Assembly (NCBI GenBank): GCA_963623095.1
Contig: CAVFKD010000001.1
Coordinates: forward strand, 19,204 to 83,203
Direction: 5' to 3'
DNA: 64,000 nt
Origin: a bacterium
GTDB lineage: Bacteria > Bacillota_I > Bacilli_A > RFN20 > CAG-449
Translations under genes and position numbers: made by a program
Shown here: in pieces, positions 3,336-56,769 of the stretch
Layout of the letters: every line of letters starts with the position of its first letter
How positions within the stretch are numbered: position 1 is the first letter of the stretch
The notes under the pieces: generated by a model
The model's input: the letters and a program-made list of their open reading frames with translations, nothing else
What the model was told of the DNA's origin: nothing
The model's database searches: none

Positions 3336-6300
3336 TTAAAAGTCAAATAAAGACATTCTATTTGATTCAGGCAAGTCTTTTAACACGCCTAGTTTCTTTA
3401 AATTTTCAATGTTTTGCATTGAAAGTTTTGTTCTTCTAGATAAATCTTCGATTGACATAAATTCTTTCTTTTCTCTTTCATCTACAACGCTTTGTGCCGC
3501 AGGTGTACCTAAGTTATCCAAAGTATCAAATGGAGGAATAATACAATTATTCTCATGATCTACTCTAAATTTACCTGCAAGAGATTTATTTAAATCGATA
3601 TTAGATATCTTATATCCTCTTTCAACCATCTCAAGAGCGATATTTAATGTCTTTTCAATTTCTTCATCTTTTGGAGAAAGTTTACCTCCGCTAGTCTTAA
3701 TATTTTTATATTCTTCAAGACGAGTTGTAATTGCTTTTTCTCCTGATGACATTACTTTAATATCATATTGTTTACTACGAGTTGTAAAATAAACAGCATA
3801 ATATTCTAATGGATAATAAACCTTATACCAAGCAACTCTGCCCGCCATCATAACATAAGCAACCGCATGAGCTTTAGGGAATAAGTATTTAATCTTATTA
3901 CATGATGTAATATACCATTCAGGAACTTTATGTTCTCTTAATAAATCTTCATCTTCTGGTTTAAGCTTTTTACCTTTTCTTACTTGTTCCATCAATGTAA
4001 ATGATTTAACAGGTTCAACACCATAGTTTTGTAAACCAATCATAATATCATCACGGCAACCAATAACTTGTTGAATAGTACAAGTTCCATCATTAATTAA
4101 ATCTTGAGCGTTGCCATTCCAAACATCAGTACCATGGGATAGACCAGAAATAATAAGTAAATCCGCGAATGTTGAAGGGTTAGTGTCTTCAAGCATTTTT
4201 CTAACAAACGGAGTACCAAATTCTGGTAAACCTAATGCACCTGTTTTTTCTTGTAAATAGTTTGCATGACATTTTAATGCATCTCTTGAACTATATAATG
4301 AAATAACTTTTGTATCTGTATTAGGGACAGTCTTTGGATCAATACCAGTTAAGTCACCAAGCATTTTTAATGCAGTTGGGTCAACGTGTCCTAATAAGTC
4401 AAGTTTTAAGACATTATCATGAATTTTATGGAAGTCGAAGTGGGTTGTTTTCCATGCCGCGGATAAATCATCCGCAGGATATTGGATCGGTGTAAAATCA
4501 TAAACATCCATATCGGAAGGAATAACAATAATACCACCTGGATGTTGACCAGTTGTTCTTTTTACATCCATACAACCTAAAGATAATCTTGTTACTTCAG
4601 CATTTTTAACTTTTCGAGGATCCATTCCTAATGCTTCAAAATATCCTAATGCATATCCATAAGCGGTCTTTTCTGCGACCGTTTCAATAGTACCTGCACG
4701 ATAAACATTAGAAACACCTAATAAGGTTTTTGTTAAATCATGGGCTCTTGCTTGATATTCACCTGAGAAGTTTAAGTCAATATCAGGAACTTTTTCTGCG
4801 TGGAATCCTAAGAATGTTGCAAAAGGAATATTTTGTCCATCACGAACCATATCTTCTCCACAAATTGGGCAATTTTTTTGAGGTAAATCAAAACCTGAAC
4901 GATATTTTTTAGTATCGACATCCCATTCTTGATGGAAACATTTTGGGCAACGATAATGAGGTGGAAGAGGATTAACTTCTGTAATATCCGACATAGTCGC
5001 AACTAAAGAAGAACCAACACTACCTCTAGATCCAACCATGAATCCATCTTTGTTAGTTTGACGAACAATTTCACTCGCGATGTAATATTGAACAGTAAAT
5101 TTATATTTTAAAATACCATCTAATTCCGCGTTAAGTCGATCTTTAACTTGTTGAGGAACTGGATCTCCATACATTCTTTTTGCGTTATACCAAACTCTTT
5201 CAACTAACAATTTTGCATCATCTTTAATATGAGGTGGATATAATCTATCTTTAACCGGTAAAACTTCTTCGAATTGATCTGCTATTAAATTTGAATTAGT
5301 GACAACGATTTCTTTTGCGATATCTTTGCCTAAGAATTCAAATTGTCTTAACATTTCACCAGTTGTTCTAAATTGTTGATCAGGGTTTTCTACATCTATA
5401 CCATTTCTCATTAATTTTTCTCTTTTTCTAGAGAAATATAATGGGTGACGAGATCCTCCAACCGCTTTCGCGAGAATATAAACATCACGATAAATCTTAT
5501 CTTCTTGAGAAATATAATGGCAATCACCTGTTGCTACACAGATTTTACCAACCTTTTTAGAAGCATCATAAATATCTTTAATAATTCTTTGAACTACTTC
5601 CATTGATTCAATTTCTTGTAATTGAACATGTAATTTAAAATTTCCTGGAGGTTGAACTTCAATGAAATCATAAAATTCCATCTTCTTCATTAAATCAACT
5701 TCTGATTTATTTCTTGCAGTTTCAAATACTTCGCCATTTAAACAAGCAGAGCCAACAAGTAAGTTTTCACGGTATTCTTGAATTAACTTTCTAGGAATAC
5801 GTGGTGAACCTGCGAAATATTCAGTATTTGATAAAGAAACAAGTTTAAATAAAGCTTTTAAACCTGCCATATTTTTCGCGTATACAGTAACATGCATTGG
5901 TCTTAAATGCTTAAATAATTGATCATTGGTTAAGTTTTCTAATTCACTATGTTTCATAGATAAATTATTTTTAGTTAAACTTGCAAGCATTCCAGCCCAA
6001 GATTCTGCGAGAACCTTAGCATCGTAGTCCGCTCTATGGGCACCATGATCATCGCCTTCTGCTTCATCTCCACCATGATATTCAACTTCGTATTGACGAC
6101 ATAAACTACCTAAGTTATGAGATCTTAGTTCAGGGTATAAATATCTAAATAAAGGTAAGGTATCGATAACAGGATTTTTAATTTCTTCTTCATTATTTCT
6201 AATGCACATTTCATTTAAGAAGCCATAGTCAAATTGACCATTGTGCGCGACTAATATAGTATCTTTATCACCGATGAAATCTTTAATAATCTTTAAAGCT

Positions 6301-44295: not shown

Positions 44296-45732
44296 TTATT
44301 TTTTAGTCGCAAGTTTTACGCATTCATAAGCTCCATTATATAAGCCCATTTTATTTAAACGTAAAATTTGTTCATTCATATTTTTTAATAATGCCTTATC
44401 GTAGATGAAATCATCTAACATTGCATTCATCTTCTTAGTTGTATCGCATTCATAAGTTGCATCACCAATTTCTTTTCCATAATATGCAGAGAATACTTCA
44501 TGTCCTCCAATATGTCTCATAAAGATTTTAGGAATTGGATAGAATACTAATTCACTTGGTTTAGTAATTAATAAATCACATTTTCTCATTAATAAGTTTG
44601 TAGAATAAACCGCAGGGAAGATGTCTTTATGGAAGATGTTATATACACCTTTAATTTCATTTTCATTCATCGAAGAAACAAAGGTTTTAAATTCATCATA
44701 TTTATCAAAATAAGTTGGATAATCTTTATAATCCTTAATTTCTTTACAAAGATATTCATAAACTTTTAAATGATCACCAAAGTTAATAAATAAAGCAACT
44801 TTATTTTCTTTAACATATGGAAGAAGATGTTTTAATATCTCCATAAATTGTTTTTGACCTGCGCCAGCACCACCAACTGTTAAAAGGATTCTAATAGGTT
44901 TATTATTTTCTAAACGTTTAATTCTTTGTTCAGTATCACTTTCTAAGTTAGAAACAATTTCATGATCAACATAATGACCTACGTATTTAATTTGATCATC
45001 AGGGATATGTTTTAAATTTCTCTTTTTATCAAATCCATCAAGTCTCTTATAACCATAATATCCAAATGATGTTTGAACAGTATGAATTGCTCCTTCTGAT
45101 AGATGTAAAGCCATAGGCCAGTTATCAGGAATTGCGTTAACTACGTGAGTCATACCAGCATGAATCGCCCCTTGTGAAGGCCAAGCATGCGTTGCGATAT
45201 AAGGAGTATCTTTTGGAATATTTCTAAATATTGGAGTTAATAATTCAGCGTTTCTTTGATCTCCTGGATTATAAACGAGTTGTTTAAATACATCTCTATT
45301 AAATACTTCCCAAACAAAATGATTAAATAATTTAGATTTTTGGGAAATTCTTGAACCTAATGAATATAAATCATTTTGGGCTCTAATGACTTTAGAACCT
45401 GTCGCATCAAAAGAAGCTAAATCAAGCCATAAAGGTTCATATCCCATTGCTTTAGCGCAGCTTGCCATTGCGATAGATATTCTATAATGACCAAAGCCCA
45501 TTCTGATATTTCCAACAATTAAACCATTTTTTGGAAATTCTTCATTTTTATCTTTAACGACAATATTTTGTGCATTAATAAAATCTAATGATTCAATCTT
45601 TTCAAATCCTAATTTGTAATCAACGGAAGAATCATCACCAAATTTCTTAATATATTTTTTCTTATTTTTATTAGCTTTTTTTACTGTTTTCTTAGGTATT
45701 TGATTACCGAAAACAACACTAGACTTATCCAT
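44296..45732 (-). CDS. GT-B glycosyltransferase of the MGDG-synthase/UgtP (GT28) type with Lys-rich N-terminal extension
   Basis: N-domain G-loop GNIRMGFGHYRISIAMA. C-domain ILLTVGGAGAGQ and LLITKP motifs resembling UgtP/MurG. Start moved to the internal Met (MDKSS...) after RBS AAAGGAG. Confidence 0.5.
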   Translation of the reverse strand: MDKSSVVFGNQIPKKTVKKANKNKKKYIKKFGDDSSVDYKLGFEKIESLDFINAQNIVVKDKNEEFPKNGLIVGNIRMGFGHYRISIAMASCAKAMGYEPLWLDLASFDATGSKVIRAQNDLYSLGSRISQKSKLFNHFVWEVFNRDVFKQLVYNPGDQRNAELLTPIFRNIPKDTPYIATHAWPSQGAIHAGMTHVVNAIPDNWPMALHLSEGAIHTVQTSFGYYGYKRLDGFDKKRNLKHIPDDQIKYVGHYVDHEIVSNLESDTEQRIKRLENNKPIRILLTVGGAGAGQKQFMEILKHLLPYVKENKVALFINFGDHLKVYEYLCKEIKDYKDYPTYFDKYDEFKTFVSSMNENEIKGVYNIFHKDIFPAVYSTNLLMRKCDLLITKPSELVFYPIPKIFMRHIGGHEVFSAYYGKEIGDATYECDTTKKMNAMLDDFIYDKALLKNMNEQILRLNKMGLYNGAYECVKLATKK

Positions 45733-47347
45733 TAATAAGTTCTCCTTTCTTAGGGTCATAAACTAGCTTATTTTCCACCCCATCAAGTTTATAAACAATA
45801 GTTACATTATCATTTGAAGTTATAATATTAGTTATAACTGCATTTGATAATTTTTGTGCTTCTAGTAATAATTGTTTTTTATTTGTATCATAGTTAGAAA
45901 CATTATCACTAGTTAAATATAAAGCACCGCATAAATGATTAATCTTAATTAATGCTTCTTTTTGTTTATCATTTAAATAGATATTATCATCTCTTAATAA
46001 ATAAACATCTGGATCATTTCTAAAGACATATCTATCCATTGGATAACGATAAATAGTATCTAGTAATGTATGCTTAGTTGAATTTCTTTCACGATGGGCA
46101 AGTACCATATAAAATTCATCATCAAATTTTAAAGATACATCGCATCCTACTCGGCAATAATCAACTTTATTAAATGCATTTTCTAAAGGAACACCACATC
46201 CTAAAATTAATTTATCTTTAAGTATATCTCTTAAAAATGTCATCATTTCACTCATTACTTGGCATCTAGTTTTATTTGGAACTTTAACTAAATTAACCGC
46301 GTATAAGAAGTCTAGTTTAAAAAAATCAAATCCTAAATCAATATAGTAATTCAAACATTCTTTAATATAATCAAGTACTTCTTTTTTTCTAATATCTAAA
46401 GATAATTGATGTGACCAGTTACCTCCAGCATATACAGGTTTATTATTTTCATCATGATAAACCCAATCTGGATGTTCTTTATATATATTTGAATCTTGTT
46501 CAACTACAAAAGGTGCGAGCCATATACCAGAAAGAAGTTGTTTATTATGGATTTCATCAACAAGAGGTTTTAATCCATGTGGGAATTTATTTTGGTCAAT
46601 ATTAAGCCAATCACCAACTTTGAATTCAAATCCATCATCAATTTGAAATAAATCATAATTAGAAGAATCAATACCTTCTAAAGCTTTATAAATCTTTTCT
46701 TCATTAATATCTTGATAATGATTATACCAAGAAGTATATCCTTTTAATTTTGGTTTAGAACTTGTTCCAAGTGAACTAAAATATAATTTTTGTGTTTCTA
46801 AGATGTTACCTTCTAAATAAGCATAATCAAGCAAGACAAATTCATTCTTATCAACAAGTTTTCTTTCACAATCACTTTCTAGAATAATTTGATTTCTTTT
46901 AACATCGTAATTTATCACTAAATACGCATTCTTTTCATTATATGATCCATATAAATAAATATTATCTTTTCTTCTTAAATAAGCATATGTATAGCCATGA
47001 AGAACATGTTTTTTAGTTTTTCTAAAAGTATAATCACCATATGCATCAAATTTATATTTGTTAGTCATATAATGACCAAATCTAATTTTATGAAGAGATT
47101 CATTAATATTAAATTCACGGCTGTCTGTCCAAGATTGGTATCCATTAACAAATACTTTATCATCTTTTAAATAATGAAATTCTTGATATAATTTAAAACT
47201 CTTTAATGTAATTGCTTCTTTAGAAGTAATTTTATAAGTAAAACGTTTACCTTGTTTTAAACAAGTTATTTGATAATCACTATTTTTAAATTCATGAGAT
47301 TTAATAAGTTTTCCATTCTTATAATAACTAATTTCCATTAGTTTCAT
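45725..47347 (-). CDS. Glycoside hydrolase family 36-like (alpha-galactosidase/melibiase-type), short form
   Basis: GH36 catalytic-domain motif FQIDDGF...GDW...KFPHGLKPLVDEIH...GIWLAPF and KLDF nucleophile region. Confidence 0.6.
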   Translation of the reverse strand: MKLMEISYYKNGKLIKSHEFKNSDYQITCLKQGKRFTYKITSKEAITLKSFKLYQEFHYLKDDKVFVNGYQSWTDSREFNINESLHKIRFGHYMTNKYKFDAYGDYTFRKTKKHVLHGYTYAYLRRKDNIYLYGSYNEKNAYLVINYDVKRNQIILESDCERKLVDKNEFVLLDYAYLEGNILETQKLYFSSLGTSSKPKLKGYTSWYNHYQDINEEKIYKALEGIDSSNYDLFQIDDGFEFKVGDWLNIDQNKFPHGLKPLVDEIHNKQLLSGIWLAPFVVEQDSNIYKEHPDWVYHDENNKPVYAGGNWSHQLSLDIRKKEVLDYIKECLNYYIDLGFDFFKLDFLYAVNLVKVPNKTRCQVMSEMMTFLRDILKDKLILGCGVPLENAFNKVDYCRVGCDVSLKFDDEFYMVLAHRERNSTKHTLLDTIYRYPMDRYVFRNDPDVYLLRDDNIYLNDKQKEALIKINHLCGALYLTSDNVSNYDTNKKQLLLEAQKLSNAVITNIITSNDNVTIVYKLDGVENKLVYDPKKGELING

Positions 47348-52294: not shown

Positions 52295-52437
52295 ATGTTC
52301 ACCTAGTATCATAAAAATTCTTTATTATAATTATTTTTATGATATTCCTTTCTTTAACAAAGAATTATACTATATAAAAATAAAACAAGTTAGTGAAAAT
52401 TAACTATTTTATTAAATATTTGCTACTTAAATATTTC

Positions 52438-52454
52438 TTTAAGTTTAATTTATG
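52438..52454 (+). promoter_or_regulatory. Direct repeat TTTAAG-N5-TTTATG, 17 bp upstream of a TATAAG -10, in the response-regulator promoter
   Basis: Same half-site, spacing and distance to -10 as the boxes preceding sRNA units 1 and 2. Confidence 0.45.
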
Positions 52455-52506
52455 TTATTTTTTGTTTAATATATAAGTAATTATTAATGAAAGACGAGGT
52501 GAAATT

Positions 52507-53187
52507 ATGCGTATATTACTCGCTGAAGATGAAAAATCACTTTCTAATGCTCTAGTTACTATTTTAAAACATAACAATTATTCTGTGGACGCTGTTTATA
52601 ATGGAGAAGATGCATTAGATTATGTTTTAAGTGATAACATTTACGATTTAATTATTTTAGATATCATGATGCCTAAATTAGATGGTATTTCAGTATTAAA
52701 AGAAATTAGAAAACGTAAAATATCAACACCAATTATTATGTTAACCGCGAAATCTGATATTCAAGATAAAATACTTGGTCTAGATGGAGGCGCAGATGAT
52801 TATTTAACTAAACCATTTAATGTTGAAGAATTACTCGCTCGTATTAGATCAGTTACAAGAAGAAAAGGGGAAATCAATAATAACAATTTAAGTTATGATG
52901 ATTTAATTCTCAATCGTTCTACTTTTGAATTAGAATGCAACGGTAATAAAGTTTTATTAACAAATAAAGAATATCAAATTATTGAACTTTTAATGTTACA
53001 TAAAGATCAAATGGTTCAAATGGATCGAATCATGGATAAAATATGGGGTTTTGATTCAAACGCAGATACTAATGTCATATGGACTTATATCTCTTATTTA
53101 AGAAAAAAACTTTCTTCTATTGGTTCAAGAGTTGGAATTAAAGCCAATAGAAACATTGGTTATTCATTGGAGGTAAAAAATGATTAA
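52507..53187 (+). CDS. OmpR-family response regulator (CiaR-like)
   Basis: Receiver D-box ILDIMMP, T/K residues, winged-helix C-terminus (WGFDS...YLRKKL). RBS GAGGTGA. Confidence 0.9.
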   Translation: MRILLAEDEKSLSNALVTILKHNNYSVDAVYNGEDALDYVLSDNIYDLIILDIMMPKLDGISVLKEIRKRKISTPIIMLTAKSDIQDKILGLDGGADDYLTKPFNVEELLARIRSVTRRKGEINNNNLSYDDLILNRSTFELECNGNKVLLTNKEYQIIELLMLHKDQMVQMDRIMDKIWGFDSNADTNVIWTYISYLRKKLSSIGSRVGIKANRNIGYSLEVKND

Positions 53188-54403
53188 GTCTTTAAAAAGA
53201 AAATTCATTTTTATCTCGATGTTATCAATGAGTTTAGTTATTATTATCATTGTCTTTGTTTTAAATATTTCTAATTATTATTCAATCTCAAGAGAATCAG
53301 ATAAAACATTAGATATGTTAATTTATACCAATTGTACATTCCCTAATGAAGAAGAATCTTCTTCTCCTGATCCTGATGAATTCTATAATGATGTCCCTTT
53401 TGAAACAAGATTCTTCTATGTTAAATTTGACCAAGATGACAATGTTATTAAAGTTGATTTAACAAGAACTAGTTATATCAAAGAAAACACTGCAATTGAA
53501 TATGCAAAAGAAGTAAAAGATTATACTTCCAATCGAGGATATTATTCTATTTATCGTTATGCAATCCATGAATACGACAATAATCATACAATGGTACTTT
53601 TTCTTGATTGTCAAAGATTATTATCAGGTTCAAGAACATTACTTATATCTAGTATTATCTACTCTGTAGTTGGACTTATAAGCGTATTTATCTTAATTGT
53701 TTTATTCTCCACTATTGTATTTAAACCTGTTCAAGATTCTTATACAAAGCAAAAACAATTTATCACTAACGCAAACCACGAATTAAAAACACCTTTAACA
53801 ATTATTTCAACAACAACTGATGTTATTGAAATGACATCTGGTAAAAGCGAATGGACACAAGATATTAAACATCAAGTTAGTAAATTAACTGATTTGACCA
53901 ATGAGCTTGTCTTCTTATCAAGAATGGATGAAGAAGGATCTAGTATAAAACGCTTAGATTTCTCTATAAGCGAAGTTTTATTAGATACTATAAAAGAATA
54001 TGAAGTTTCTTTAAAAAAGCGTAATATCGAAGTAAAAGCCTCAATTAATGGCAATGTCACTTATAATGGTGATATGGCTAAAATCAAATCACTATTTGAA
54101 ATATTATTAGATAATATTAATAAATATGCGATTGATAATTCTATTGTAGAAGTATCATTAATAGACAATGATAAAAACAAATTGTATATATCATTCACTA
54201 ATCAAACTGAATCTGTTCCTCAAGGTAATTTAAATGTATTATTTGAAAGATTCTATCGTTTAGATTCAAGTAGAAACTCCTCTTTAGGTGGCCATGGTAT
54301 TGGTTTGAGTATCGCTCAAGCTATTGTCACATTACACAAAGGAACAATCACTTGTAATTCCAAAGATGGAAAAGAAATAAAATTTGAAATAAATTTAAAA
54401 TAA
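53180..54403 (+). CDS. Sensor histidine kinase, 2 TM with ~125-aa extracytoplasmic loop, no HAMP (CiaH-like architecture)
   Basis: H-box HELKTPLT, N/G boxes (LLDNINKYA, GGHGIGLSIA). Overlaps RR stop. Confidence 0.9.
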   Translation: MIKSLKRKFIFISMLSMSLVIIIIVFVLNISNYYSISRESDKTLDMLIYTNCTFPNEEESSSPDPDEFYNDVPFETRFFYVKFDQDDNVIKVDLTRTSYIKENTAIEYAKEVKDYTSNRGYYSIYRYAIHEYDNNHTMVLFLDCQRLLSGSRTLLISSIIYSVVGLISVFILIVLFSTIVFKPVQDSYTKQKQFITNANHELKTPLTIISTTTDVIEMTSGKSEWTQDIKHQVSKLTDLTNELVFLSRMDEEGSSIKRLDFSISEVLLDTIKEYEVSLKKRNIEVKASINGNVTYNGDMAKIKSLFEILLDNINKYAIDNSIVEVSLIDNDKNKLYISFTNQTESVPQGNLNVLFERFYRLDSSRNSSLGGHGIGLSIAQAIVTLHKGTITCNSKDGKEIKFEINLK

Positions 54404-54411
54404 TTTAATAT

Positions 54412-54449
54412 TTTAAGTTACGCTTAAGTTTAATTAAATAATATATACT
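54412..54449 (+). promoter_or_regulatory. Promoter of sRNA unit 1: TTTAAG-ttacg-CTTAAG direct repeat, 15 bp, TATACT -10
   Basis: Read directly. Begins 8 nt after the HK stop codon. Confidence 0.5.
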
Positions 54450-54454
54450 CGTAA

Positions 54455-54575
54455 AAGATGTGATATCTTTTAGAACTTAATATATCTCAAAATAACCTTT
54501 ATGCATGCTTTCATAAGTTCTAAACAATCCCTTAGGTATTACATCTTCACACCCCATCGAAAGATGGGTTTTTAT
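54455..54575 (+). ncRNA. Candidate small RNA, tandem copy 1 (~118 nt): 5'/3' closing helix, internal stem-loop with 33-nt conserved loop, conserved ACAAUCCCUUAGG, intrinsic terminator CCCATC-gaaa-GATGGG+T5
   Basis: No ORF or RBS. Helices AAGAUGU/ACAUCUU and AGAACUUA/UAAGUUCU. Own promoter and terminator. Confidence 0.6.
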
Positions 54576-54607
54576 TTTCAAAAAATATTTTTAAAATTAT
54601 TTTTTTC

Positions 54608-54646
54608 TTTAAGTTTTATTTAAGTAAAACCATTTATAGTTATAAT
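54608..54646 (+). promoter_or_regulatory. Promoter of sRNA unit 2: perfect TTTAAG-tttta-TTTAAG direct repeat, 16 bp, TATAAT -10
   Basis: Read directly. Confidence 0.55.
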
Positions 54647-54651
54647 CGTAA

Positions 54652-54770
54652 AAGATGTGATATCTTTCAAACCTCAATATATCTCAAAATAACCTTTATG
54701 CATGCTTTCATGAGGTTTGAACAATCCCTTAGGTATTACATCTTCTCGCCCATCTCTGATGGGTTTTTTC
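54652..54770 (+). ncRNA. Candidate small RNA, tandem copy 2 (~118 nt). Internal stem is AAACCUCA/UGAGGUUU (fully compensatory relative to copy 1). Terminator is CCCATC-tctg-GATGGG+T6
   Basis: Core identical to copy 1 except both strands of the internal helix changed coordinately. Confidence 0.6.
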
Positions 54771-54831
54771 TTGTTTTTATTTAATTTTTCTACCATATTA
54801 TTCTTAAATATATTATTATAACTAGGCAATA

Positions 54832-54940
54832 GAGATTTCTTTTAGAACTCGATATATCTCAAAATAACCTTTATGCATGCTTAAAGAGTTCTACAATCCC
54901 TTATTGAAATCCTATTGTGCCACCTTCGGGTGGCTTTTTT
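54832..54940 (+). ncRNA. Candidate small RNA, tandem copy 3 (divergent 5' end): closing helix GAUUUC/GAAAUC, internal helix AGAACUC/GAGUUCU, terminator GCCACC-ttcg-GGTGGC+T6
   Basis: Conserved loop (AUAUAUCUCAAAAUAACCUUUAUGCAUGCUU) and ACAAUCCCUUA retained. Both helices altered by compensatory changes. Preceded by a TATAAC -10 but no clear direct repeat. Confidence 0.5.
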
Positions 54941-54973
54941 CATTTAAAAAGGTTCGACTTTCATCGAACCTTA
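54941..54973 (-). terminator. Intrinsic terminator after secreted-protein gene (AAGGTTCGA-ctttca-TCGAACCTT + U-tract on minus)
   Basis: 9-bp perfect stem. TTTTTAAAT follows on minus strand. Confidence 0.7.
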
Positions 54974-54977
54974 GTTT

Positions 54978-56613
54978 TTACCAACAATCATGAACTACAT
55001 AGCTATTATCGACTACTAAAGGATTACCATAATCTTTATAGAATAGATTTCTACTGATAATATTAGTTAATCTATCATAGCATTCCCATTCATAATCACC
55101 ATTTAAATGGATTTGATCCGCTTTTAAGAAGCAAAGATAATAATCAAAGTTCTTATATTGTAAATCGTAATGATCAACTCCTCCATACCATGTATGGTAG
55201 CAATCTACTTTATAAATAGGAGTTCTTGTATAATCACCATTTTGATTATAATAAGTTGCAGTTACTTCTGTATCGTGGTTAAGATATCCCATACCATCCG
55301 CGTATAAGTTACCATTGAATAAACCTGCCGCATTATCGAATAATTCTTGATCTACTGCATAGAATCCAGCTTCTTTTAAATATTTGTTGATTGTATAATC
55401 TTCATCTCCATATGTTGTAATATAATCTTTATAGTCATTCGCGACATATTTAAGAATATTTTGTTCTGGATGATATGCCATACCATAATCTTTATAATCA
55501 CCATTGTATTTTAACGCCGCTCTTAATAAGCCTTGTCTACTATCATCACCAACTCTATCATTAGGATTATATGTTAAAGTTGCCATTCTTGTAGAATATT
55601 GAGTATTAGTTGGAAGATAAGTTGTAATATGATCTTCTTGCATTAATTTTTCTTGTTCATCTAATACTATAAGTTCTTCTTGGAATTTTTTACCAACTGC
55701 ATTGACATATTCAGCCATTGTTTTTAATTGTTGATCATATGTTCCTCTTGCTGCAGGTTTTTCAATATAACGATAATGCATATCGAATTGAGCAAGATTT
55801 ACAGTCGCTAATAACATATTTGTACAATAAGCAATGTAATCTCTTCTATTTTTAATCTTTTGACCTGTCCATTTATCATTTAGACCAATAGTATAATCAT
55901 AATAATAGAAGATATCTTTACTCTTATCTGCTTGGTTAGGATGTAAGATTGTATCCGCAAGTTGAGTTGCATATGTAACTAAAGTTGTTTCAATACCTAA
56001 TCCATTAGCGTTATTTGCTAAAGTATAATCTTTACAAATAGCTTCATATACTGCATATCTTCTTGCTTCTACTTCTTCTTCAGGAATAGTTTCATCAAGT
56101 TCTAACATTGCAAGATCCCATAAGCTTCCGTTTACTTTATCTTTAATATTAAATTGAACATTACTGAACATTTTATAAAGATTTTCATTTAATACTTCTT
56201 CTGCATGATAGATATCTTGTTTCTTTTCAATAATACTTAATTTTTCTTTAATTTCACTTAAAGCATTTTCAATTCTTTCTAGATACTTAATACTTGCATC
56301 TCTAATATCAATACCAAAGCTCTTTAATAAGTTAATAACTAATGTTTTTTCATAGCCTGTAACAATACCATCGACTAATTTACTTCCATCAGTAACTAAT
56401 TTATTAATAATATATTTAGTTGCATCTTCAATTTCACCATCATTAACTTTATTTGTGTTATTTAATAAAGATACTTCGTTAGTTTCTTTTAATGTAACTT
56501 CTTCTGCTTTTACTTGAGTAGCTACATTATTCATCTTATTAGCGTTCATACTAACTCCAACAGTAGCAAGTATCGCTAATAAACCAGTTGTTAATATTTT
56601 TGTCTTTACCATA
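54978..56613 (-). CDS. Hypothetical secreted protein (545 aa): signal peptide, helical/coiled-coil N-half, Tyr/Asp/Asn-rich C-terminal domain
   Basis: Start re-assigned to MVKTKIL... (AAGGAGG 9 nt upstream). Signal peptide LLAILATVGVSMNA. The minus-strand promoter TTGACA-N17-TATTAT is upstream at ~56650-56690. Confidence 0.5.
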
Positions 56614-56769
56614 TTAGTAGCCTCCTTAAGAGTAACATTTATTTGTCTTTTGTAACTCTTACACTCATATAATAACACTTTCACATCCATTGTCAACACT
56701 TTTTAGAAACATTTTTATTATTTTTGTAACTTTTTAAAAAATTCATTATACAAATAAAGACAAAATGCA

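Follow-up and report, generated by a model that had tools for sequence, protein, structure and literature searches.

The system described here lies in a 64,000-nucleotide stretch of contig CAVFKD010000001.1 (assembly GCA_963623095.1), referred to below as the window, and comprises a two-component system (TCS) followed directly by three small RNA (sRNA) units. The host is an uncultured low-GC gut bacterium of the Bacillota, for which metagenome assemblies are the only source. The window has a GC content of 29.6%, its intergenic DNA is 76% A+T, and PolC, PcrA, topoisomerase I, PFOR and TldD/PmbA are all encoded in it. The genes for the response regulator and the sensor histidine kinase overlap by 8 nt and make up an operon. 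Only 9 nt separate the kinase stop codon from the start of the direct-repeat box preceding RNA unit 1, with no terminator between them, and the description of the sRNAs in a first-pass annotation of this DNA as physically fused to the operon is borne out, as the RNA genes abut the kinase gene. The order of genes in related loci is TetR, PmbA and TldD, then the divergent regulator-kinase-RNA array, then PFOR. The features of the locus are as follows.

52438–52454, plus strand: box TTTAAG-tttaa-TTTATG of the regulator operon promoter, exact and kept in five distinct related sequences
52465–52470, plus strand: −10-like hexamer TTTAAT, 10 bp past the regulator box, invariant in all relatives
52507–53187, plus strand: OmpR/PhoB-family response regulator, 226 aa, with Response_reg and Trans_reg_C domains
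53180–54403, plus strand: sensor histidine kinase, 407 aa, with Pfam HisKA at residues 191–252 and HATPase_c at 298–405
54412–54428, plus strand: box TTTAAG-ttacg-CTTAAG of RNA unit 1, from the sequence and its relatives
54439–54444, plus strand: −10-like hexamer TAATAT (TATTAT in relatives), 10 bp past the unit-1 box, assigned by conservation
54451–54576, plus strand: RNA unit 1, from fold, covariation and covariance model, with a predicted 5' end; terminator at 54553–54568 plus a U run
54608–54624, plus strand: perfect box TTTAAG-tttta-TTTAAG of RNA unit 2, from the sequence and its relatives
54635–54640 and 54641–54646, plus strand: adjacent −10 candidates of unit 2, TATAGT (10 bp from the box) and TATAAT (16 bp), both kept in relatives
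54648–54771, plus strand: RNA unit 2, paralogous to unit 1, its inner stem differing by compensatory changes; terminator at 54748–54764
54826–54942, plus strand: RNA unit 3, with no upstream box; terminator at 54919–54934
54949–54972, no strand assigned: hairpin between the RNA array and a convergent 573-aa open reading frame (ORF), probably a bidirectional terminator

The three direct repeats were found exactly as the first-pass annotation had given them, in sequence and in position. All three lie on the plus strand in intergenic DNA, ahead of the regulator gene, unit 1 and unit 2. The proposal of one box common to the regulator gene and the sRNA units is correct for these three promoters but does not extend to unit 3; in the stretch 54776–54942, which holds this unit, neither a direct-repeat box nor a good −35/−10 pair was found. 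When one mismatch to TTTAAG-N5-TTTAAG is allowed, the window holds six matches against 2.96 expected, and 5 of 100 shuffles reach six; with a −10 hexamer required in addition, the count is six against 3.8 expected. When both strands of the window are scanned, the pattern TTT[AT]AG-N5-NTTA[AT]G occurs only at the three sites (0.92 expected, P(≥3) = 0.06), with no further match in the 64-kb window or in related loci. The placement of the boxes, unlike their raw count, exceeds chance: when the three short promoter segments were shuffled with their composition kept, one segment was positive in 73 of 5000 cases, and two or three segments in 0 of 5000. Compared at the scale of the window with chance occurrence in AT-rich DNA, a check proposed together with the original claim, the motif is therefore marginal in raw number, but its placement and conservation go beyond chance. 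Two further one-mismatch boxes, each with a −10-like hexamer 9–10 bp downstream, were treated as chance occurrences. Both are on the minus strand; the site at 52426–52442 overlaps the regulator box, points to tldD and is not conserved in relatives, and the site at 56246–56262 falls within the coding sequence of the 573-aa ORF.

Related loci were identified by exact-protein look-ups and by a scan for the RNA core, with one genome per species (L001, L003–L006 and L008–L011). Their regulators are 92–94% and their kinases 81–86% identical to the window proteins. The footprint alignment contains 18 promoter instances from eight loci, namely seven related assemblies and the window. When these are aligned on the box, 34 of 36 hexamer columns are invariant, as are 11 of 15 columns of the N5 spacer, 12 of 30 columns of the following 10-bp spacer and 16 of 18 columns of the next hexamer. 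In the regulator box, both hexamers are invariant across five distinct sequences, with 3 of 5 N5 columns and 6 of 10 spacer columns fixed. The second hexamer of the unit-1 box reads CTTAAG, GTTAAG or ATTAAG, accompanied by an N5 of ttacg, ttaca or ttata; five of six columns are invariant in the −10 hexamer of this promoter, compared with only 3 of 10 in its 10-bp spacer. The unit-2 box is kept in L005, L010 and L001, and its first repeat is TTTTAG in L009. Because the hexamers are fixed across relatives while N5 and the spacer drift, we judge the boxes to be real. In two related loci, an additional TTTAAG precedes the regulator box by 13 nt (L004, ~3835–3876; L005, ~1274–1315); it does not fit the phase of the 11-bp repeat and has no counterpart in the window.

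The distance from the box to a −10-like hexamer is exactly 10 bp in 18 of 18 instances and is the sole constant distance in the alignment. The hexamers at this position are TTTAAT in the regulator promoter, TAATAT or TATTAT in that of unit 1, and TATAGT or TATATT in that of unit 2. The distance of 15–17 bp to the −10 in the first-pass annotation has to be corrected accordingly, as its hexamers TATAAG and TATACT are not conserved in relatives: the regulator TATAAG at 17 bp reads TATTAA in L010, and for unit 1 the best TATAAT is at 15 bp in the window lineage but at 13 bp in L009 and L010. The box does take the place of the −35 region, as had been proposed, but with the geometry of a class-II activator site and not as a −35 hexamer. 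The classical Pho-box arrangement has the same 10-bp geometry.

These data bear on the simplest alternative, in which no response regulator is involved and the repeats are either fortuitous AT-rich sequence or common weak −35-like elements of housekeeping promoters. Marginal window counts relative to shuffles and A+T-rich intergenic DNA fit such an explanation, as does unit 2, in which the second hexamer stands 16 bp from a perfect TATAAT, a −35-like position. However, the hexamers, including their rare G, stay fixed while the spacers drift, and the unit-1 distances of 13 and 15 bp are wrong for a −35 element. Moreover, the architecture of two hexamers with 11-bp periodicity recurs at homologous, but not at distant, regulator loci, as described below. 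We consider this alternative quite improbable.

The three RNA units are tandem hairpin-plus-terminator elements of ~120 nt that are 81% identical column-wise. Intrinsic terminators number five, compared with 0.5 expected in shuffles, and one of them ends each unit. Each unit folds into a single long hairpin (z = −5.4 to −6.4; −5.4 for unit 1 and −6.4 for unit 2). The invariant internal loop ACAAUCCCUUA separates its outer from its inner stem, and of the 34 nt in its apical loop, 31 are the same in all copies. Among nine copies from four genomes, compensatory changes occur at 11 base pairs, mostly in the inner stem and the terminator. The covariance model scores unit 1 at 146.5 bits, unit 2 at 141.5 bits and unit 3 at 91.5 bits. 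Unit 3 retains both invariant loops and has a different, self-compensated outer stem; it is present in the window, in L001 and in L008 (6968–7092), and is absent from L009 and L010, which have two units each. In five assemblies (L002, L005, L006, L011 and L008), the contig ends inside the RNA array. Tandem repeats fragment metagenome assemblies, so that the copy number in metagenome-assembled genomes is probably under-reported.

Searches with Rfam at gathering thresholds gave no match in the whole window. At E ≤ 10 over 54300–55000, the best sub-threshold hits had E ≥ 0.5, for example RsaE with 19 bits against a threshold of 79. A 20-nt RNA core was found in four stretches among 185,579 species genomes, all at the same locus, and the covariance model, run on the window and 28 loci including distant homologous systems, recovered known copies only. 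By these comparisons, we regard the units as a previously undescribed sRNA family. Small ORFs within the units (e.g. 54501–54623) were rejected as coding sequences; they have no ribosome-binding site, the frame is not kept, and in unit 3 it stops after three codons. The sequences UCCCUU in the internal loop and ACCUUU in the apical loop are only partially complementary to local ribosome-binding sites of the GGAGG type, and CAU is present in the units in the wrong order or spacing for an anti-start-codon segment. The two invariant unpaired segments are likely target-interaction sites, which would act through base pairing in trans. Since the kinase gene is followed by unit 1 without an intervening terminator, the RNA of this unit may also be released from the operon transcript by processing.

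The same lack of a terminator, together with an invariant apical loop whose 31 identical nucleotides are far longer than a typical seed, invites a different interpretation of the units, namely as protein-binding or sponge RNAs, or as 3' untranslated region or terminator modules of the kinase operon. That no target was found in the window and that the RNA family is confined to one locus would agree with this. Such roles nevertheless seem unlikely: units 1 and 2 have their own conserved promoters and terminators, and compensatory structure changes together with invariant loops are what sibling regulatory RNAs usually display.

The question of which protein binds the boxes was approached through the homologues of the regulator. 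Outside its own clade, its nearest homologues are a very large group of 225-aa regulators with 62–65% identity, the few named ones from Clostridia, with near-identical recognition helices (e.g. NVVWTYISYLRKKL). We surveyed 80 loci with regulator relatives at 36–64% identity, with statistics that are rough, using a strict test that demands G at both sixth positions, at most three mismatches and a −10-like hexamer 9–11 bp downstream. In the 200 nt ahead of the regulator gene, this box-plus-−10 arrangement occurs at eight independent loci, all with at least 44.7% identity and all with the helix type xV[W/E]xYISxxRKKL, compared with only 1 of ~55 more distant loci; the per-locus expectation from shuffles is 0–0.03. 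Similarly, whole-locus scans with at most two mismatches placed 14 of 16 sites in the group with at least 44.7% identity. The hexamers at homologous loci vary among TTTAAG, TTTCAG, TTCAAG and TTTTAG. Some of the sites precede neighboring genes for VTC-domain, Cthe_2159, HlyD-type and RelA/SpoT-domain proteins, which suggests a conserved regulon for this abundant Clostridia-type regulator clade. The box-N10-(−10) arrangement stands before VTC-domain/Cthe_2159 genes in L014 (7032–8678, where the gene order is VTC, DUF4956, Cthe_2159), L016 (~4397), L024 (~4526), L025 (~5215–5304) and L030 (~1109).

It is mainly because the promoter type tracks the regulator clade that we take the adjacent regulator as the probable binder. 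The boxes could also be real but bound by another OmpR-family regulator encoded elsewhere in the genome, whether PmrA-like, HP1043-like or truly CiaR-like. Several unrelated family members recognize this repeat: TTTAAG-N5-TTTAAG is the experimentally defined site of HP1043 (HsrA) from Helicobacter pylori and of PmrA from Acinetobacter baumannii, and the OmpR-family regulator BAS0540 of Bacillus anthracis binds NTTAAG-N5-TTTAAG at its own promoter in electrophoretic mobility shift assays. The box sequence alone therefore cannot name the regulator, and a DNA-binding domain only 30% identical to that of CiaR leaves further room for a distant binder. Set against this, one box lies at the regulator's own promoter and two lie directly after its operon, and promoters of this type are found at the loci of homologues that share the recognition helix. 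On the evidence of the window and the homologous loci, we regard a binder encoded elsewhere as improbable.

The adjacent regulator has complete receiver and winged-helix (Trans_reg_C) Pfam domains with readable conserved phospho-acceptor residues, and aligns over its full length to many OmpR/PhoB family models and solved structures. The first-pass annotation had named TTTAAG-N5-TTTAAG as the CiaR box of Streptococcus pneumoniae and CiaR as the activator of cia-dependent small RNAs (csRNAs); both points are published (Marx 2010, PMC3091779; PMC8186281). In the CiaR-dependent csRNA promoters, the box is located 10 bp from the −10 (Marx 2010, PMC3091779; PMC8186281), and CiaRH and the csRNAs are described as confined to streptococci (Marx 2010, PMC3091779). 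Upstream of the S. sanguinis ciaRH locus (L007), we observed the sequence ATTCAG-tcctg-TTTAAG-N10-TATGAT.

An S. pneumoniae CiaR sequence served as comparator and was confirmed by a search that returned proteins 97–99% identical to it, and one from S. sanguinis at 89%. The window regulator is 39% identical to CiaR (172 bits, measured on a database CiaR-type sequence 97% identical to our query P0123), with 47% in the receiver and 30% in the DNA-binding domain. Its recognition helix VIWTYISYLRKKL matches VVEVYVSKVRKKL of CiaR at 7 of 13 positions, four of which belong to the widely shared RKKL tail, and it does not conform to the CiaR-type helix VVEVYVSK[V/I]RKKL. With only 30% identity in this region, the resemblance to CiaR that had been claimed for the winged-helix part is not upheld. 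The kinase consists of two transmembrane segments (TM1 and TM2) enclosing an external loop of ~120 aa, with HisKA directly after TM2 (its start lies ~10–20 residues further on) and no HAMP domain; in both the window kinase and S. sanguinis CiaH, Pfam detects HisKA and HATPase_c only. In BLASTP, the kinase aligns with CiaH over residues 155–406 only, covering TM2 and the catalytic core, at 28% identity, and the sensor domains do not align. The characterization of the kinase as CiaH-like is thus apt for its architecture, as in S. sanguinis, but not for its sensor region.

Genuine orthology to CiaRH-csRNA, whether by vertical descent or by transfer from streptococci, would explain the shared box, the 10-bp geometry, the kinase architecture and the regulator-driven sRNAs. 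In a rough neighbor-joining tree, CiaR also sits, on a long branch, beside the clade that holds the window regulator. However, this tree has no support values, and its sampling is biased toward the window regulator, so that it is too weak to rescue orthology. CiaR proteins among streptococci are 80–99% identical (Marx 2010, PMC3091779), far above the 39% found here, and CiaR is equally distant (38–42% identity) from the whole regulator sample, including clearly different subfamilies. As the kinase sensor domains do not align and the csRNA nonamer is absent as well, we reject CiaR orthology as very improbable. ArlR, the label given by JGI to close homologues, was likewise rejected, as ArlR is reported to bind a 20-bp inverted repeat of different sequence, ATNGYANNTTAANNTRCNAT (PMC6868441), and the window sites are direct repeats. 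Among PDB entries, the best match to the receiver alone is that of ArlR (131 bits), which has no bearing on DNA recognition.

Taken together, we propose, with a probability of about 0.68, that the locus encodes a self-contained TCS-sRNA module in which the adjacent regulator drives its own operon and two of the three sibling sRNAs. We postulate that the membrane kinase phosphorylates the adjacent OmpR/PhoB-type regulator, which would bind the 11-bp-periodic direct repeat (TTTAAG-N5-NTTA[A/T]G) as a head-to-tail dimer. The repeat would fill the −35 region 10 bp before a weak −10, and the bound regulator would bring about class-II-type activation of its own operon and of the two sibling sRNA genes directly after the kinase gene. 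The third, boxless sibling RNA would be expressed in another way. The module is CiaRH-csRNA-like in its logic, non-orthologous in its proteins and equipped with a new sRNA family. Of the CiaRH-csRNA-like circuit outside streptococci suggested by the first-pass annotation, the design and the promoter geometry (at 10 bp) thus remain, but not the family membership.

Several observations weigh against this proposal. Within the window, the motif exceeds chance in number only marginally, and the relatives are close and few (five to six distinct sequences), which makes the footprint shallow. The transcription start sites are predicted from the sequence, and the perfect TATAAT at 16 bp is also conserved at unit 2, where it may provide a second mode of initiation. 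Use of the box by unrelated OmpR-family regulators means that the binder could be encoded elsewhere, and a clear upstream box is missing from seven close homologues that share the helix (L012, L017 and L019–L023). Furthermore, a duplex-energy search for targets across all 40-nt stretches of the window and 52 ORF starts yielded no outlier other than self-antisense pairings.

More speculatively, the code TTTNAG-N5-TTTNAG-N10-(−10) may belong to a large Firmicute clade of OmpR-type regulators with the helix xV[W/E]xYISxxRKKL, perhaps including CiaR and BAS0540. On this tentative extension, sRNA outputs would have been acquired independently at least twice, and the operon-fused RNAs would be the main output in the present system, with sensor, regulator and RNA effectors united in one portable cassette.

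Three further features were noted around the module. The convergent 573-aa ORF (54978–56699, minus strand) has an N-terminal hydrophobic segment and gave no Pfam or NCBIfam match; it has a 558-aa counterpart in L010 and is apparently missing in the L008 genome, where PFOR adjoins the RNA unit. The sequence AGTTAGTGAAAATTAACT at 52388–52405, with 5-bp inverted arms and an 8-nt spacer, is kept in all related loci amid otherwise variable DNA, ~32 bp upstream of the regulator box. On the minus strand over this element, a promoter-like TTCACT-17-TATAGT faces the divergent tldD/pmbA genes, and AGTTAGTGAAAATTAACT could be an operator or the tldD promoter. At 44296–47347 on the minus strand, two neighboring large ORFs (487 and 540 aa) had no NCBIfam match at E ≤ 1e-10.

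In this system, the CiaRH-csRNA design appears in an unrelated uncultured gut Firmicute, built from a sensor pair that is not orthologous and an RNA family that is undescribed, with the sibling sRNAs as the strongest-looking targets. The locus also offers a compact case of three promoters in which to study how recognition of one TTTAAG repeat comes about in divergent winged-helix regulators. Regulator-controlled sRNAs in metagenome-assembled Firmicutes can be sought with the rule that it supplies (box, 10 bp, −10, terminator). Beyond this locus, the survey points to a promoter code of a very abundant, uncharacterized Clostridia-type regulator clade, which could serve to predict regulons, among them VTC-domain, Cthe_2159, HlyD-type and RelA/SpoT-domain genes.

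Compared with CiaRH, the system shares the NTTAAG-N5-TTTAAG box 10 bp before the −10, including at the promoter of its own operon, with binding predicted here. Like the csRNAs, the window RNAs are several sibling, terminator-ended sRNAs that are predicted targets of the regulator. A CiaR-type promoter and a terminator within 250 nt are present for units 1 and 2, and the terminator alone for unit 3; a tandem pair of csRNAs is also found in S. sanguinis. In contrast, the RNAs show no sequence similarity to csRNAs and lack the nonamer [A/C]UCCUAAA[A/C], the nearest sequence being the invariant AAUCCCUUA in the internal loop. The csRNAs form two stem-loops around an unpaired anti-Shine-Dalgarno/anti-AUG region, whereas each window RNA is one long hairpin, and csRNA genes are dispersed, whereas those of the window RNAs all sit at the 3' end of the operon. 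The host, a PolC-bearing gut Firmicute of 30% GC with PFOR and TldD/PmbA, is not a streptococcus.

Similar arrangements are known from other regulators. In PhoB-type promoters, repeats replace the −35 region and the winged-helix regulator binds as a head-to-tail dimer. PmrA and HP1043 likewise read two hexamers that recur every 11 bp on a single face of the DNA, but belong to other regulator subfamilies, hosts and regulons. OmpR with OmrA/OmrB, the tandem PrrF1/PrrF2 and the Qrr RNAs provide examples of duplicated adjacent sRNAs with common unpaired regions under one signal-responsive regulator. Unlike the window units, OmrA/OmrB, PrrF and Qrr are not known to lie at the 3' end of their regulator's own operon; they occur in Proteobacteria and act with Hfq. 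The non-streptococcal BAS0540-BAS0541 pair is described as the closest CiaRH homologue in B. anthracis. Compared by description only, it differs from the window system in that no sRNA targets are reported for it, and resembles it in having the same box at its own promoter and a kinase with two transmembrane segments, HisKA and HATPase. Its use of this box gives the CiaR-type box outside streptococci a precedent.

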